The position numbers and the translations under genes are program-made. Below are positions 2,972-8,789 of a DNA stretch of 26,821 bases, in pieces; position 1 is the first letter of the stretch, and each line of letters starts with the position of its first letter. The stretch lies in UHGV virus genome UHGV-0258232; one strand, given 5' to 3'. The DNA is from a virus. Below the pieces are notes generated by a model. That model was not told the DNA's origin. It did no database searches and saw only the letters and a program-made list of their open reading frames with translations.

Positions 2972-3576
2972 TAAGCAGTTGCCCCTTCTAATTCGTCTCG
3001 TCTGATGTTGTAAACGTCCTGCGCTTTGTGCTGCTCCGGCGTCCCTTCGAGCATCTTCCACGCTTTGGCGAACGCCTGTTTAAGCTCTTCTACGGTGTTT
3101 TTCTGCATTGCTGCGTCAGTGAATGCTTTTAGAACCTGTTCAGGTGTAAGTGATGGTTTTGATTGCTTTGCTGCTGCGTTCTGCTGATGTTTATGCTCGT
3201 CTGTATCTGCATCTTTCGCATCATCAATGCCGAACAAACCATTGAGGCAATACTTGCGTGCATAAGAGCTTGTAGCTCCCGTAACTTGTGCAGAATCCAT
3301 TCCTTTCTTGCTTTCTTCCTCTCGTGCAAGAGCGGTTGCCGTATGACTGTTTTCGCCATCGGTAATAGTTGCCGTGGCTTTCACGTAATACCGATCACCA
3401 ATCAACACAACTTCATCGCTGATTGATAAAAACAGACCGTTCAGTAACGGCTTAACGCCTTCAAGAATATCTTCGCAGCTTCTGTATTTATATTTGCCGA
3501 ATGAGTTGTACTGATTCTTTGGCGCGTTCAGATTCTCCTGAATAGCTGCCAGTCTTGCGTAAAATTCTTTGCTCAT
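2971..3576 (-). CDS. erf: Erf-family single-strand annealing recombination protein (201 aa)
   Basis: Starts MSKEFYARLAAIQENLNAPKNQYNSFGKYKYRSCEDIL, matching the recalled N-terminus of P22 Erf; ATG at 3576 chosen over the upstream TTG of the track ORF. Confidence 0.88.
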   Translation of the reverse strand: MSKEFYARLAAIQENLNAPKNQYNSFGKYKYRSCEDILEGVKPLLNGLFLSISDEVVLIGDRYYVKATATITDGENSHTATALAREEESKKGMDSAQVTGATSSYARKYCLNGLFGIDDAKDADTDEHKHQQNAAAKQSKPSLTPEQVLKAFTDAAMQKNTVEELKQAFAKAWKMLEGTPEQHKAQDVYNIRRDELEGATA

Positions 3577-3677
3577 ATGATTGCTCTCAGAATGGACACG
3601 GCCCAAGGAAATAACGCTGATTTAATACTTCGACTCGGGACAAATTAAGGCATACCCGCATTCCTTCGCGGTCACCA

Positions 3678-3836
3678 TTATGGCGATACCAGAGAGCTTT
3701 CTGCGTGTACATGCGTCTCTGTAACTTGCTCTCCTTCACTGTGGTTGCAAGTGACATGAATATCTCCTTCGTTACCGATTAATTCTTTTATCTGACGAAT
3801 GAATTCTTCGTCTGACCAGTTATCCGTAAAACTCAT
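3678..3836 (-). CDS. Small early protein (about 52 aa), Kil/Arf-position ORF
   Basis: Track ORF trimmed to the internal ATG overlapping the cIII stop (ATGA); lies between cIII and erf where P22-like phages carry kil/arf; identity not established. Confidence 0.4.
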   Translation of the reverse strand: MSFTDNWSDEEFIRQIKELIGNEGDIHVTCNHSEGEQVTETHVHAESSLVSP

Positions 3837-4003
3837 GGACGGCCTTGTTGTTTCAAAATATCCCAAAGCTTTTCGAGCAAGCTTTTCATTCTTGGTTGTT
3901 TAAAGTCTGCTCCGGTTAAAATGTTTTTTCGTGAATGCTGTACCGATAAAATCGGGTTGAAAGGGCGAACCGATGCCGCCCCTGCAATAGCGAACTGTTG
4001 CAT
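3833..4003 (-). CDS. cIII: CIII-like FtsH (HflB) protease inhibitor (56 aa)
   Basis: MQQFAIAG...LLEKLWDILKQQGRP resembles recalled lambda CIII (MQYAIAGW...LIDILNQPG); AAGGAG RBS upstream of ATG at 4003. Confidence 0.75.
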   Translation of the reverse strand: MQQFAIAGAASVRPFNPILSVQHSRKNILTGADFKQPRMKSLLEKLWDILKQQGRP

Positions 4004-4065
4004 AGGATGCTCCTTCTGTTTGATTGCATAACGAAAACGCCTCGAGTGAAGCGTTATTGGTATGC

Positions 4066-4093
4066 ATATAAAAAAGCCCTCACATTGGAGGGC
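4066..4093 (-). terminator. Rho-independent terminator between accessory cassette and cIII
   Basis: Minus-strand GCCCTC-CAATGT-GAGGGC hairpin followed by TTTTTTAT. Confidence 0.55.
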
Positions 4094-4156
4094 AAAGAAG
4101 ATTTCCAATAATCAGAACAAGTCGGCTCCTGTTTAGTTACGAGCGACATTGCTCCG

Positions 4157-4184
4157 TGTATTCACTCGTTGGAATGAATACACA
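4157..4184. repeat. 9-bp perfect inverted repeat GTGTATTCA/TGAATACAC, 10-nt spacer
   Basis: Seen directly, immediately after the stop of the 62-aa ORF; no T-tract follows. Confidence 0.6.
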
Positions 4185-4188
4185 GTGC

Positions 4189-4377
4189 TTATTCGTCATG
4201 CATTTCAGGTAACTCTTCGTATTCGACGCTCCATACGTTTTCACACCAACTAACTCGCTCATATCTTTTACAGAAAGCAGACCACATAACTAGTGTTCCA
4301 TCATGGTTTGTTATTACTTCTGTAATATCACCAACACTAACAAAACTGGTATTAGAAGCGGTTATTTTTACTTTCAT
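4189..4377 (-). CDS. Hypothetical small protein (62 aa), accessory cassette gene 3
   Basis: Track ORF; start shares one base with the upstream stop (TAATG); low-GC. Confidence 0.5.
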   Translation of the reverse strand: MKVKITASNTSFVSVGDITEVITNHDGTLVMWSAFCKRYERVSWCENVWSVEYEELPEMHDE

Positions 4378-4673
4378 TACTTATCCCCAAGAGCTTTTCT
4401 TATTGCTGCGAGACCTTTATTAACAGCTCCATACCATTCTGGATATGTTGTCGTTGTTCTATTTTTGGTTTGCTTAAGTAATAACTGAAGTGCTTCGAGA
4501 AGGTCAGGTGCTGCCGCTATTAGATTGGCATCTTCAATGCATTGAACTTCCTCACAGATTGCAATATACGAACGCCAGCCTGCGCCATTTTCAAGTGAGT
4601 CTGCCTGGATGATTTTAATCTCATCCCCATCCATCATTATTTCCCACTTACCTTCAGTACCTTTAAATTCCAT
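4377..4673 (-). CDS. Hypothetical protein (98 aa), accessory cassette gene 2
   Basis: Track ORF; AGAGG RBS upstream of ATG at 4673; low-GC; no recognisable motif. Confidence 0.6.
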   Translation of the reverse strand: MEFKGTEGKWEIMMDGDEIKIIQADSLENGAGWRSYIAICEEVQCIEDANLIAAAPDLLEALQLLLKQTKNRTTTTYPEWYGAVNKGLAAIRKALGDK

Positions 4674-4692
4674 GTTAGCCTCTGTTGTTTAT

Positions 4693-4720
4693 GCCAAAAA
4701 TAAAGGCCGACTATGCGGCC
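4693..4720 (-). terminator. Rho-independent terminator or attenuator after the 156-aa gene
   Basis: Minus-strand GGCCG-CATAGT-CGGCC hairpin followed by TTTATTTTTGG; overlaps the gene stop codon. Confidence 0.5.
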
Positions 4721-5190
4721 TAGTAGAATACCCAATTTTCTGTTTCTTGGTTGTGTCCAAAGTTATATTCAATATCTGGTGTTGATGTATCAATATTCTT
4801 CATCCCATCAACAAGAGTTGATACAACAGCCAAATCTTGTTTGATTCTCATTAAATGGTATTTCTTCCGGCGCAATAAACTTTCAATGGCAAGTTTCTTC
4901 GTTGGGAATGCAAAAGATCTTTCTGCATTTTTTGCTACTTTCTTAATTGCATATCTATTTCTCTTTTGTTTCCATTCCTGTAACCACTGATTTGGTGCTG
5001 GTTTAAAATTAACAATCCAATGCGCAGGAACCAACCATGCATAATGCTCTGTCTGATGAAAAGCTATATATTGAAGTGCGAATATTTTGATTCCATCTTC
5101 TTCAACTGTCGCCTGGAATCTCCAGAAAACAGGCATTCCATCATGTTCAGTTTCTGATTCAGGAAAAGGTACGCTCCATGATTTTGTCAT
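4720..5190 (-). CDS. Hypothetical protein (156 aa), accessory cassette gene 1
   Basis: Track ORF; GAGGTGA RBS upstream of ATG at 5190; low-GC; about 200 bp non-coding upstream; no recognisable motif. Confidence 0.6.
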   Translation of the reverse strand: MTKSWSVPFPESETEHDGMPVFWRFQATVEEDGIKIFALQYIAFHQTEHYAWLVPAHWIVNFKPAPNQWLQEWKQKRNRYAIKKVAKNAERSFAFPTKKLAIESLLRRKKYHLMRIKQDLAVVSTLVDGMKNIDTSTPDIEYNFGHNQETENWVFY

Positions 5191-5390
5191 ATCTCACCTC
5201 AAATAAGTGGCTTGCTGCGAAAATAAATCCGCTTAAGTTACCTGTTATTTATCCCACCAAGTTCCGTATCTATCTATCCAGTTACACCAATCATCGACAC
5301 TCCATTTTGTTGTGTCGCATTTTGGCAACTGGCATGAATATCTACCTTCTTTGTAAAGTCGGCGTTTGACTTTCTTGAGCATGGCTCACC

Positions 5391-5723
5391 TCAATCGTAA
5401 TAAGCTGGAATTGATTTTCCGCGTTGCTTCTGGCGGCCTGAGCAAGTCACACCCATTTCACTGCGTGGCTTGCTGTACCATGTGCGCTGATTCTTGCGCT
5501 CAATACGTTGCAGGTTGCTTTCAATCTGTTCGTGGTATTCAGCCAGCACCGTAAGGTCTATCGGATTCAGTGCGCTTTCTACTCGTGATTTCGGTTTGCG
5601 ATTCAGCGAGAGAATAGGGCGGTTAACTGGTTTTGCGCTTACCCCAACCAACAGGGGATTTGCTGCTTTCCATTGAGCCTGTTTCTCTGCGCGACGTTCG
5701 CGGCGGCGTGTTTGTGCATCCAT
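5391..5723 (-). CDS. N: N-type transcription antitermination protein (110 aa)
   Basis: From the internal ATG reads MDAQTRRRERRAEKQAQWKAANPLLVGVSAKPVNRPILSLNRKPKSRVESALNPIDLTVLAEY, matching recalled lambda N incl. arginine-rich motif; C-terminus diverges. Confidence 0.9.
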   Translation of the reverse strand: MDAQTRRRERRAEKQAQWKAANPLLVGVSAKPVNRPILSLNRKPKSRVESALNPIDLTVLAEYHEQIESNLQRIERKNQRTWYSKPRSEMGVTCSGRQKQRGKSIPAYYD

Positions 5724-5833
5724 CTGGATTCTCCTGTCAGTTAGCTTTGAGTAACGCGCCGTGATGCTTATCTCCACGGTTGCTGTCTTGCAGCTGCATT
5801 TCGCGCTACTCAAAGCCTTCTGCTTTGAATGCT

Positions 5834-5864
5834 GCCCTTCTTCAGGGCTTAATTTTTAAGAGCA
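5834..5864 (-). promoter_or_regulatory. nutL site (boxA and boxB)
   Basis: Minus-strand TGCTCTTAAAAATTAA (boxA-like) and GCCCTGAAGAAGGGC (boxB hairpin), matching recalled lambda nutL, between PL and N. Confidence 0.85.
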
Positions 5865-5879
5865 TCACCTTCATGGTGG

Positions 5880-5950
5880 TCAGTGCGTCCTGCTGATGGC
5901 TTAAAATTACAAGAAAGATTGTATGTTGTAAACAAGAAATATTGTAAAAA
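5880..5950 (-). promoter_or_regulatory. PL promoter region (approximate)
   Basis: Minus-strand TTTACA, 17 nt, TAATTT overlapping OL operators upstream of nutL; exact -10/-35 not verified. Confidence 0.45.
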
Positions 5951-5976
5951 GGGGCGTGAAAAACAAACTCCATTGT
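5909..5976. promoter_or_regulatory. OL operators, 434 type (three 14-bp sites)
   Basis: ACAAGAAAGATTGT (5909-5922), ACAAGAAATATTGT (5932-5945), ACAAACTCCATTGT (5963-5976) fit the 434 operator pattern ACAA-N6-TTGT. Confidence 0.8.
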
Positions 5977-6025
5977 TTTTAAATGAAAAATAGTTTGTTT
6001 TTGGTTATCGAGATTGAGGTGGGGA

Positions 6026-7378
<1,353 letters not shown>

Positions 7379-7386
7379 GACATTCC

Positions 7387-7418
7387 CGCTCTTACACATC
7401 CCAGCCCTGAAAAAGGGC
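7387..7418 (+). promoter_or_regulatory. nutR site (boxA and boxB)
   Basis: CGCTCTTACA (7387-7396) and GCCCTGAAAAAGGGC (7404-7418), matching recalled lambda nutR, between cro and cII. Confidence 0.85.
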
Positions 7419-7443
7419 ATCAAATTAAACCACACCTATGGTG

Positions 7444-7463
7444 TATGCATTTATTTGCATACA
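7444..7463 (+). other. Hairpin GTATGCA-TTTATT-TGCATAC upstream of cII (possible tR1 or leader element)
   Basis: 7-bp inverted repeat seen directly; function not established. Confidence 0.3.
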
Positions 7464-7497
7464 TTCAATCAATTGTTATCTAAGGAAATACTTACAT

Positions 7498-7776
7498 ATG
7501 CAACTTACAAGTACTCGCAAGAAAGCGAATGCAATTACAAGCAACATCCTGAATCGAATTGCTGTACGTGGTCAGCGAAAGGTTGCCGACGCGTTAGGGG
7601 TTAATGAATCGCAAATTTCGCGATGGAAAGACAGCTTCATCCCCAAAATGGGAATGCTTCTGGCTGTTCTTGAATGGGGTGTTGAAGACGAGGAGTTGGC
7701 GGAACTGGCTAAGCAAGTAGCCAGAATGCTGACAAAAGAAAAAGCCCCGAAGAACGGCGAATTCTTCGAGGCCTAA
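7498..7776 (+). CDS. cII: CII-like transcriptional activator (92 aa)
   Basis: SQISRWK...IPKMGMLLAVLEWGVEDEELAELAKQVA matches the recalled lambda CII core (SQISRWK...IPKFSMLLAVLEWGV); ATG at 7498 with AAGGA RBS. Confidence 0.85.
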   Translation: MQLTSTRKKANAITSNILNRIAVRGQRKVADALGVNESQISRWKDSFIPKMGMLLAVLEWGVEDEELAELAKQVARMLTKEKAPKNGEFFEA

Positions 7777-7810
7777 TGTAGAAAGACTGGATCAATCCAC
7801 GGGAGTAATT

Positions 7811-7972
7811 ATGACAAAACGTCGTAAGAAATACCAGGAAAAAGAAGAGATTCGACACCCTGATTCACCTGAGGGATTAGTGGTAGCCGCAGCAAATAAC
7901 AGGGCGTTCGCAGAGCGCCTTGTTGGTGTTTACAGACTAGCTAAAGCAGGAGTGAAACATGGGCGTCGTTAA
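7811..7972 (+). CDS. Small basic ORF (53 aa) between cII and replication gene
   Basis: Hand-translated [53 protein letters not shown]; GGGAG RBS; overlaps next gene start by 14 nt; not in track. Confidence 0.3.
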   Translation: MTKRRKKYQEKEEIRHPDSPEGLVVAAANNRAFAERLVGVYRLAKAGVKHGRR

Positions 7973-8789
7973 GTTAGCTGATTACAGGCCTCAACTGGAG
8001 GTCGTGGAGCATCGCGTGGCAGAACTCGAAGATGGCTACACTCGGACTGCAAACACACTGTTAGAAGCCGCCATGCTTTCTGGACTTACTCTACATCAGT
8101 TACTGATTGTTATGGCTGTGTGGCGCAAGACATACGGTTACAACAAAAAAATAGATTGGATCGGAAACGAACAGTTCGCTGAACTCACTGGCATGGCACC
8201 AACCAAATGCTCTACCGCCAAAAACGAGCTTATCAGAATGGGAGTTCTCATTCAGGTGGGGCGTCAAGTTGGTATGAATACAAACATTTCCGAGTGGAAA
8301 ACGAAAGTTAACGGATTCGGTAAAACATTTACCAATTCGGTAAAACAAACCTTCACCAAATCGGTAAAAAGCAATTTACCGAATCAGTCAAACACAAAAG
8401 ACAATATACAAAAGACAATAAATACAAATACCCCCTTACCCCCTAGCGGGGGCGGCGATGGGCAGGTTAAACCTGAACGTCGCAAGGCAGAACGAATCGA
8501 CTACGAATCCTTCCTGAACGCCTACAACACCGAAGTCGGTGACAGACTTCCACACGCTGTTGCGGTCAACGAGAAACGAAAACGCCGCCTGAAGAAAATC
8601 ATCCCGCAACTGAAAACGCCAAACGTGGACGGTTTCAGAGCGTATGTCAGGGCGTTTGTGCATCAGGCCAAGCCGTTTTACTTCGGAGACAACGACACTG
8701 GCTGGACGGCAGATTTTGATTACCTGCTGAGGGAAGATTCGTTAACGGGAGTACGGGAAGGGAAGTTTGCAGACAGGGGGATTGCATGA
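7959..8789 (+). CDS. Replication initiation protein, O-like (P22 gene 18-like)
   Basis: N-terminus shares the lambda O motif ([15 protein letters not shown]...WRKTYGYNK); iteron-coded repeats [14 protein letters not shown] in the middle; AGGAG RBS. Confidence 0.85.
8315..8384. repeat. Replication origin iterons inside the initiator gene
   Basis: ATTCGGTAAAACA (8315-8327, 8335-8347), AATCGGTAAAAAG (8359-8371) and inverted TTACCGAAT (8376-8384), followed by an A+T-rich tract (about 8391-8440). Confidence 0.75.

Follow-up and report, generated by a model that had tools for sequence, protein, structure and literature searches.

Results

Organization of the leftward early region

The window, by which we mean the whole stretch of 26,821 nucleotides analyzed here (UHGV virus genome UHGV-0258232), was compared by megablast over positions 3500 to 7000 and matched Sf6, Sf101, HK633, HK446, phage 434, and many Stx phages at 95 to 99% identity, in patches only. 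Its sequence identifies it as a lambdoid phage with the immunity of phage 434. The pL promoter, the operators, and nutL were placed by mapping the curated features of phage 434 (OL657226), which show 0 to 1 mismatches on the window. The pL promoter and its 434-type operators occupy 5897 to 5976 on the minus strand, with the transcript start at about 5897, the −10 element at 5905 to 5910, OL1 at 5909 to 5922, OL2 at 5932 to 5945, and OL3 at 5963 to 5976. The nutL site (5834–5864, minus strand) comprises a boxA-like element TGCTCTTAA at 5856 to 5864, assigned by analogy with the lambda nutL sequence, and boxB GCCCTGAAGAAGGGC at 5834 to 5848; the 434 nutL stem-loop maps to 5833 to 5849 with zero mismatches.

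From this point the minus strand carries, after pL and nutL and in this order, N, a 45-aa gene, a 156-aa gene, a hairpin, a 98-aa gene, a 62-aa gene, a spacer, a second terminator-like hairpin, and a cIII-like gene, and every gene from N through cIII lies on the one strand. The N antitermination gene (5391–5723, minus strand) is of the lambda type, begins MDAQTRRRERRAEKQ, and matches Pfam N36 (E = 2.6e-26) and phrog_271; its TGA stop lies within the ribosome-binding site of the next gene. That gene, of 45 aa (5245–5382, minus strand), belongs to the DUF5484 family (46.7 bits against a Pfam cut-off of 27, E = 2.6e-12; phrog_1871, E = 1.4e-22) and has its own ribosome-binding site, TTGAGGTGAG, which overlaps the stop codon of N. 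The DUF5484 protein contains three cysteines and five tryptophans.

Beyond the 156-aa gene (4720–5190, minus strand) and the hairpin on its stop codon lie the 98-aa gene (4377–4673, minus strand; phrog_1273), which has a conserved C-terminal half and variable N-terminal halves, and the 62-aa gene (4189–4377, minus strand; phrog_10407). A conserved spacer followed by the second terminator-like site takes up 4068 to 4188 (minus strand), with an imperfect inverted repeat at 4151 to 4188 and a hairpin at 4076 to 4093. This second hairpin (GCCCTC-CAATGT-GAGGGC followed by T6, −11.1 kcal/mol) closes the variable region ahead of cIII. The curated 434 record marks a near-identical hairpin at the equivalent position as a terminator, and the GCCCTC hairpin is also present 3′ of the 156-aa gene in phages 933W and H-19B. 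The cIII-like gene (3833–4003, minus strand) was assigned from its open reading frame and sequence, cIII being annotated at the equivalent place in related records. A scan of the minus strand from pL to 4721 revealed no terminator-like site ahead of the hairpin that ends the 156-aa gene, and a search of Rfam returned no RNA family in 3500 to 7500.

Several further features surround these genes. In the leader between nutL and the start of N, a 15-nt inverted repeat (5744–5758 and 5802–5816, 93% complementary, arms 43 nt apart) may be the counterpart of the stem in the lambda N leader that RNase III processes. Just 3′ of the 434-type cI, an open reading frame at 6026 to 6502 (minus strand) corresponds to Hex, the "repressor protection protein" annotated in phage 434, and its likely true start resembles a signal peptide. 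The inverted repeat at 4151 to 4188 (minus strand) has 17-nt arms that are 82% complementary, with the core GTGTATTCA...TGAATACAC and no T run, and is conserved in the window, in 933W, in H-19B, and in many prophages, within the spacer that separates the cassette region from the GCCCTC terminator. Between the GCCCTC terminator and the start codon of cIII there is a further terminator-like hairpin, AACGCTTCACTCGAGGCGTT followed by TTCGTT (4036–4055, minus strand), which may be part of a cIII leader structure. Members of the 98-aa family are small acidic proteins, all encoded just 3′ of the hairpin linker, in which a well-kept C-terminal half (AAPDLLEALQ...YPEWYGAVNK..AI.KALG) is joined to at least five unrelated N-terminal halves (window 4377–4673; loci L092, L119, L141, L146, and L161), a pattern that resembles domain swapping.

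The 156-aa gene and its protein

The 156-aa gene is L0079 of phage 933W (AAD25424; phrog_1636, match E = 5e-112). Our searches found 33 protein clusters, and alignment of 22 full-length homologs (56–99% identity) left 40 invariant columns, so the open reading frame is a real, conserved gene. Among 5426 complete E. coli genomes, 1079 are matched by a query that spans it. Its GC content is 36.1%, compared with 51.1% for N and 48% for the window, and that of the neighboring 45-, 98-, and 62-aa genes is 36 to 41%. Related phages vary in whether they have the gene: in Sf6, 434, lambda, and Sakai Sp5 the place after N is taken by other genes, Sp5 having no copy of the 156-aa gene, and in 933W the order is N, the 156-aa gene, and the spacer. 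The H-19B record (AF034975) contains the gene at the same place, unannotated.

The encoded protein is basic (pI 9.05), has seven tryptophans, and gave no usable match in Pfam, NCBIfam, PADLOC, or the sequences of the PDB. Its AlphaFold model has a mean pLDDT of 83.6 and is moderately reliable, one of five models being confident. Foldseek analysis against viral models identified uncharacterised phage proteins only, with TM scores of 0.46 to 0.61; the hosts of these phages include Erwinia, Rhizobium, Tenacibaculum, Delftia, and Cellulophaga. When 1.8 billion proteins were searched with a profile, 87 relatives emerged, mostly of 130 to 155 aa, and none of the 19 of these that were tested matched a named family. 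The protein is a phage-specific fold. In the papers searched on L0079, on nutL and the terminators of H-19B, on Stx-prophage transcriptomes, and on hotspots in the early left operon, no data on the 156-aa gene were found, transcript data included. We infer, weakly, that the protein most likely acts during lytic growth, at an early stage.

Upstream sequence and promoter prediction

The first-pass annotation had described 5191 to 5390 as a 200-bp untranslated region and had proposed promoter prediction there as a check on whether the gene has a transcript of its own. Most of this interval is occupied by the conserved 45-aa open reading frame at 5245 to 5382, so the true noncoding gap is 54 nt (5191–5244). 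The strong ribosome-binding site that had been noted for the 156-aa gene is as described, GAGGTGA lying at 5194 to 5200, three bases ahead of the ATG at 5190.

A consensus scan of the minus strand from 5191 to 5400 found no sigma-70-like site. In a position-weight scan, based on hand-entered frequency tables, the best candidate was ATAACA (5243–5248) as the −35 element, a spacing of 17 nt, and TATTTT (5220–5225) as the −10 element, which together match 8 of 12 consensus positions and lie in the 54-nt gap about 23 nt 5′ of the ribosome-binding site. Among dinucleotide-preserving shuffles of the 200-nt interval, 38% scored at least as high as this candidate; its −10 element is the weaker TACTTT in the closest relatives, and the stretch is deleted in phage Bas106. 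It was therefore rejected as a promoter, being at chance level and not conserved. Among 60 distinct 200-nt upstream contexts of the 156-aa gene, none contained a better candidate and none shared a position. A promoter inside the linker (TTGGCA) was likewise rejected, since by eye no −10 element lies at a usable spacing. Over the window and the 60 contexts, this sequence-level test detected no sigma-70 promoter belonging to the 156-aa gene directly 5′ of it. The weak ATAACA-17-TATTTT match may give low-level constitutive transcription.

The conserved 5′ flank derives from N

BLAST boundaries, together with the 84 loci that contain the gene, limit upstream conservation to the 17 to 28 nt 5′ of the ATG. 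In the window this conserved flank, GCAGCAAGCCACTTATTTGAGGTGAGAT, spans 5191 to 5218 (minus strand) and includes GAGGTGA, and the BLAST boundary to the Stx phages falls at 5218. In the reading frame closed by the TGA of TTTGAGGTGA, the flank encodes the C-terminus of an N protein, ..GVTCVGRQKMKLGSKPLI; it is left over from the 3′ end of an N gene (..SKPLI and the TGA) and makes up about half of the 54-nt gap.

We examined 106 loci for N open reading frames and their remnants. A full-length N reading frame, either of the lambda type or of a second type, runs to the TGA within TGAGGTGA, 8 nt ahead of the ATG of the 156-aa gene, at 28 loci, and at least 13 codons of the N C-terminus are kept at 44. 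SKPLI alone is kept at 11, including those arranged like the window, where the same is seen, and at 21 loci the hairpin linker takes the place of the N remnant 5′ of the gene. These reading frames and remnants place the usual site of the 156-aa gene directly after N, with the stop codon of N within its ribosome-binding site. By the same sequence comparison, the 45-aa gene of the window has been placed between N and the 156-aa gene, and the block TTGAGGTGAG is present twice (repeat D4) because of it. In 933W (L001, 2980–3040) and H-19B (L003, 2183–2243), past the annotated stop of the H-19B-type N, another frame encodes a lambda-N-like C-terminus, VTCVGRQKMKLGSKPLI, which constitutes a mosaic joint inside the 58-nt "intergenic" gap.

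A terminator-like hairpin on the stop codon

The hairpin that had been reported at the end of the 156-aa gene is real and consists of AGGCCG-CATAGT-CGGCCT followed by TTTATTTTT (4696–4721, minus strand). The terminator scan delineated a stem from 4721 to 4704 with six pairs (five of them G-C), a 6-nt loop, and then TTTATTTTTGG, the T run at 4696 to 4704 having 8 T in 9 bases right after the G+C stem. This is the full form of an intrinsic terminator, a G+C-rich stem-loop with the U run TTTATTTTT following at once, on the same strand as pL and nutL and 3′ of both. Its reported placement also holds: the TAG stop of the 156-aa gene occupies 4722 to 4720, its A and G forming the first two bases of the stem, and the 98-aa gene starts at 4673, 23 nt past the T run.

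In isolation the hairpin folds at −9.2 kcal/mol (z = −2.56), and in its 76-nt context the fold is no better than that of shuffles (z = −0.8). Nine terminator-like sites were counted in 3500 to 8500, compared with 4.5 ± 2.2 in shuffles, so a single site of this kind is weak evidence. The exact string GGCCGCATAGTCGGCCTTTATTTTTGG at 4694 to 4720 (minus strand) occurs in no shuffle of the window, and its letter-for-letter recurrence in at least 120 viral contigs indicates that the hairpin is not a chance match; this recurrence marks a shared element and is no proof that the hairpin belongs to the 156-aa gene. Closely related copies contain no compensatory changes, and three single changes break a pair. 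From its form the hairpin is probably a working terminator, and it may be a weak one, with a short stem of six pairs (−9.2 kcal/mol) that starts inside the stop codon; we speculate that a terminating ribosome could hinder its folding and make it leaky. A bidirectional terminator was rejected, as no T run follows the stem on the plus strand.

The hairpin is part of a linker shared by many cassettes

The hairpin (4704–4721) and the T run (4696–4704), followed by GGCATAAACAACAGA to 4681, form a 41-nt linker (4681–4721, minus strand) that ends at a BLAST boundary at 4681. At about 69 of the 84 loci with the 156-aa gene, no hairpin is found on the stop codon. Such copies have the stop, then ACGAATAAGCACTGTGTATTC, the spacer, and the GCCCTC hairpin. 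The same junction follows the 62-aa gene in the window, where the last 8 nt of that gene and the spacer beyond it are the sequence that lies directly 3′ of the 156-aa gene in 933W and H-19B. Because they share this ACGAATAAGCACTGTGTATTC-spacer junction, the arrangement of 933W is that of the window minus the hairpin and the 98- and 62-aa genes.

Elsewhere the linker lies on the other side of the gene: at L020, L032, and L038 it is found 5′ of the 156-aa gene, at the end of a 207-aa Nmad5 gene that has its TAG in the hairpin loop. A stop codon inside the loop (..GCC GCA TAG) is seen in several other cassettes. An exact search with 28 nt of the linker found it in at least 120 viral contigs, always at gene boundaries. 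At 93 analyzable loci it follows at least nine unrelated open reading frames (207, 149/140, 156, 107, 210, 147, 62, 60, and 55 aa) and precedes at least five unrelated units (the 156-aa gene, a 46-aa gene, a 108-aa gene, the spacer, and a family of 83- to 99-aa genes). The linker-carrying loci present 71 distinct flank combinations; they were chosen for having the linker and some contigs were taken twice, so that these counts are of loci, not of independent events. Since its partners differ on either side, the hairpin is a joint common to cassettes and probably not part of the 156-aa unit, and we read the linker, from its sequence, as a terminator-like joint between cassettes. The earlier assignment of the hairpin to this gene as its own terminator agrees with its place in the window but fits poorly with its absence from most copies, with the variety of genes that it ends, and with its occasional position 5′ of the gene.

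Distant homologs

All four prophage homologs from other genera are encoded on the same strand as the genes for recombination or integration in the leftward operon. In a Cronobacter prophage, GCCCTC-TCCG-GAGGGC followed by T8 ends 15 nt before the ATG of the homolog, and AGCCGC-CTAAGC-GCGGCT followed by T5 starts inside its TAG stop, as in the window; the latter hairpin keeps six pairs, three of which are changed on both sides relative to that of the window. In Brenneria and Pectobacterium prophages the homolog stands at the far end of the operon before xis, with one terminator about 20 nt 5′ of the ATG and a second 3′ of the gene, and in a metagenomic lambdoid phage a terminator lies between N and the homolog. 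Terminators placed like this, at 15 to 25 nt from the ATG in distant homologs, leave no room for a promoter, and expression of these distant homologs must therefore depend on read-through. Cronobacter, Brenneria, and Pectobacterium each have an independent T-run hairpin, with a different stem, at the same position, which speaks for selection on the structure and the U run. Remote relatives are found in tightly packed phage operons, their start and stop codons overlapping those of neighboring genes.

Two homologs, in non-lambdoid phages with a ParB-like gene, head their own operon. In the phages of this type the homolog (64–85% identical) is first in an operon divergent from the tail genes (L224, 2931–2959 and 3001–3477; L222; L225), with a promoter-like TTGACG-17-TATAGT site (10/12) 5′ of it, the next gene within 11 to 14 nt, and no terminator after it. 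A near-same terminator, GCCGCCTAA.C.GCGGCTTTTT, lies 3′ of the homolog in the Cronobacter prophage and 5′ of it in that of Pectobacterium (L086, 3963–3986 and 4476–4498; L085, ~3950–3980), an arrangement that parallels, in other genera, the placement of the E. coli linker on either side.

Discussion

A probable promoterless cassette of the pL operon

We consider the 156-aa gene to be an optional cassette within the leftward early (pL) operon of a lambdoid phage, not an independent transcription unit, and the hairpin to be an intra-operon terminator; on the sequence, we put the probability of this at about three in four. The reading draws on the gene order, on the lack of a scan-detectable intrinsic terminator before the hairpin, on the N-derived flank, on the missing promoter signal, and on the varied partners of the linker. 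Upon infection or induction, RNA polymerase would start at pL (~5897) and pass nutL, and one message would carry N, the 45-aa gene, and the 156-aa gene. The hairpin and U run at 4696 to 4721 would be the first intrinsic-terminator-like site on this message. We infer that unmodified polymerase would stop here to give an immediate-early RNA of about 1.2 kb, and that polymerase modified by N would override the site and read on to the 98- and 62-aa genes, the terminator at 4076 to 4093, cIII, and beyond. In a lysogen, 434-type repressor at OL would shut pL, and the 156-aa gene should therefore be silent in the prophage. The 41-nt linker, for its part, would offer a homology patch for recombination, by which cassettes could be exchanged between phages. 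Intra-operon terminators are common in such antiterminated lambdoid operons, where they have been suggested to reduce downstream message or to stop transcription that is not antiterminated (Casjens and co-workers, PMC8022706).

The first-pass annotation had instead proposed a self-contained moron, with a sigma-70 promoter in 5191 to 5390, expression from the prophage, and a terminator of its own. Part of that proposal stands: this is an optional, mosaic insertion of low GC content (36% versus 48% for the window), present in some related phages and missing from others, with a plausible terminator directly 3′, and on its sequence the gene is moron-like in the loose sense of extra DNA. The weak ATAACA-17-TATTTT match some 23 nt 5′ of the ribosome-binding site also fits a moron. 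The strict promoter-gene-terminator layout is not supported by what the sequence contains. The supposed promoter region is mostly the conserved 45-aa gene; the one match in it scores at the level of chance and is weakened to TACTTT in the closest relatives and deleted in Bas106; the conserved flank is coding sequence of N, whose stop lies inside the ribosome-binding site; and the hairpin is shared, serving other genes and missing from most copies of this one. With terminators that abut the ribosome-binding site in distant homologs as well, we regard an autonomous unit as improbable.

It is also unlikely, in our judgment, that the hairpin is no working terminator and instead is mainly a scar of recombination or a homology patch, or serves as a 3′ stem-loop that shields processed mRNA from exonucleases, with transcription running to 4076 to 4093 regardless of N. 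Its complete intrinsic-terminator form, a G+C stem with 8 T in 9 bases, speaks against this, as do the independent T-run hairpins built on other stems at the same position in Cronobacter, Brenneria, and Pectobacterium. The stem is nonetheless short and moderately stable, its fold does not stand out in the 76-nt context (z = −0.8), ribosomes would interfere with folding where the stop codon lies on the stem, as here, or in the loop, as elsewhere, and both 933W and H-19B do without the hairpin and rely on the GCCCTC hairpin. In favor of a functionless chance match is the rate at which shuffled sequence gives terminator-like sites, about half of that observed; a 27-nt string unexpected by chance that recurs exactly in at least 120 viral contigs, always at gene boundaries, leaves it a negligible probability. 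A more far-reaching and rather doubtful proposal makes the linker the defining joint of exchangeable N-cIII cassettes and the stop codon within the hairpin a ribosome-gated terminator, at which termination would be set by translation of the upstream cassette. Were this true, the 156-aa protein, as the commonest N-adjacent cassette and one found in Stx phages, would be produced alongside N as an immediate-early effector, directed for instance against a host defense.

Taken as a cassette of the pL operon, the 156-aa gene would belong to the ordinary make-up of the N-proximal variable region, namely promoterless accessory cassettes and terminators that N overrides. Its layout alone is no ground for classing it among lysogenic-conversion genes, an early lytic function being more likely. 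The gene is very common, a query that spans it matching about a fifth of complete E. coli genomes, and Shiga-toxin phages such as 933W and H-19B are among its carriers. The joining of many cassettes by one 41-nt terminator-like linker gives a handle for cataloguing the cassette pool at this locus.

Comparison with known systems

The closest counterparts are L0079 of 933W and the copy in H-19B, which are about 98% identical in nucleotide sequence to the gene of the window, across its whole length and its ribosome-binding site, and are likewise placed just after N in the pL operon. These two phages differ in that no 45-aa gene follows N and no hairpin lies on the stop codon, the spacer and the GCCCTC terminator coming next, whereas the window has the extra hairpin linker and the 98- and 62-aa genes in between.

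In phage lambda, the genes at this place are sieB, orf28, and ral, which have no sequence similarity to the window. The hairpin of the window resembles tL1 of lambda in being the first terminator-like site 3′ of pL, nutL, and N on the same strand, and by analogy it would be expected to stop unmodified polymerase and to be read through by polymerase modified by N. Unlike tL1, it is located two accessory genes beyond N and not directly after it.

The morons of HK97 and HK022 described by Hendrix, Juhala, and colleagues are reportedly optional genes between otherwise adjacent genes, of atypically low GC content and with a factor-independent terminator 3′. The 156-aa gene is like them in its optional insertion, its low GC content, and the terminator-like site that follows it, but it differs in having no detected promoter, an N-coding 5′ flank, and a terminator that is shared and missing from most copies. 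Conserved boundary or linker sequences are reported to lie at the mosaic joints of lambdoid phages (Clark et al. 2001 on HK620; Juhala et al. 2000). The 41-nt linker is comparable to these boundary sequences as a short conserved sequence between nonhomologous modules with many partners, and is set apart from them by being, at the same time, a terminator-like hairpin that overlaps stop codons.
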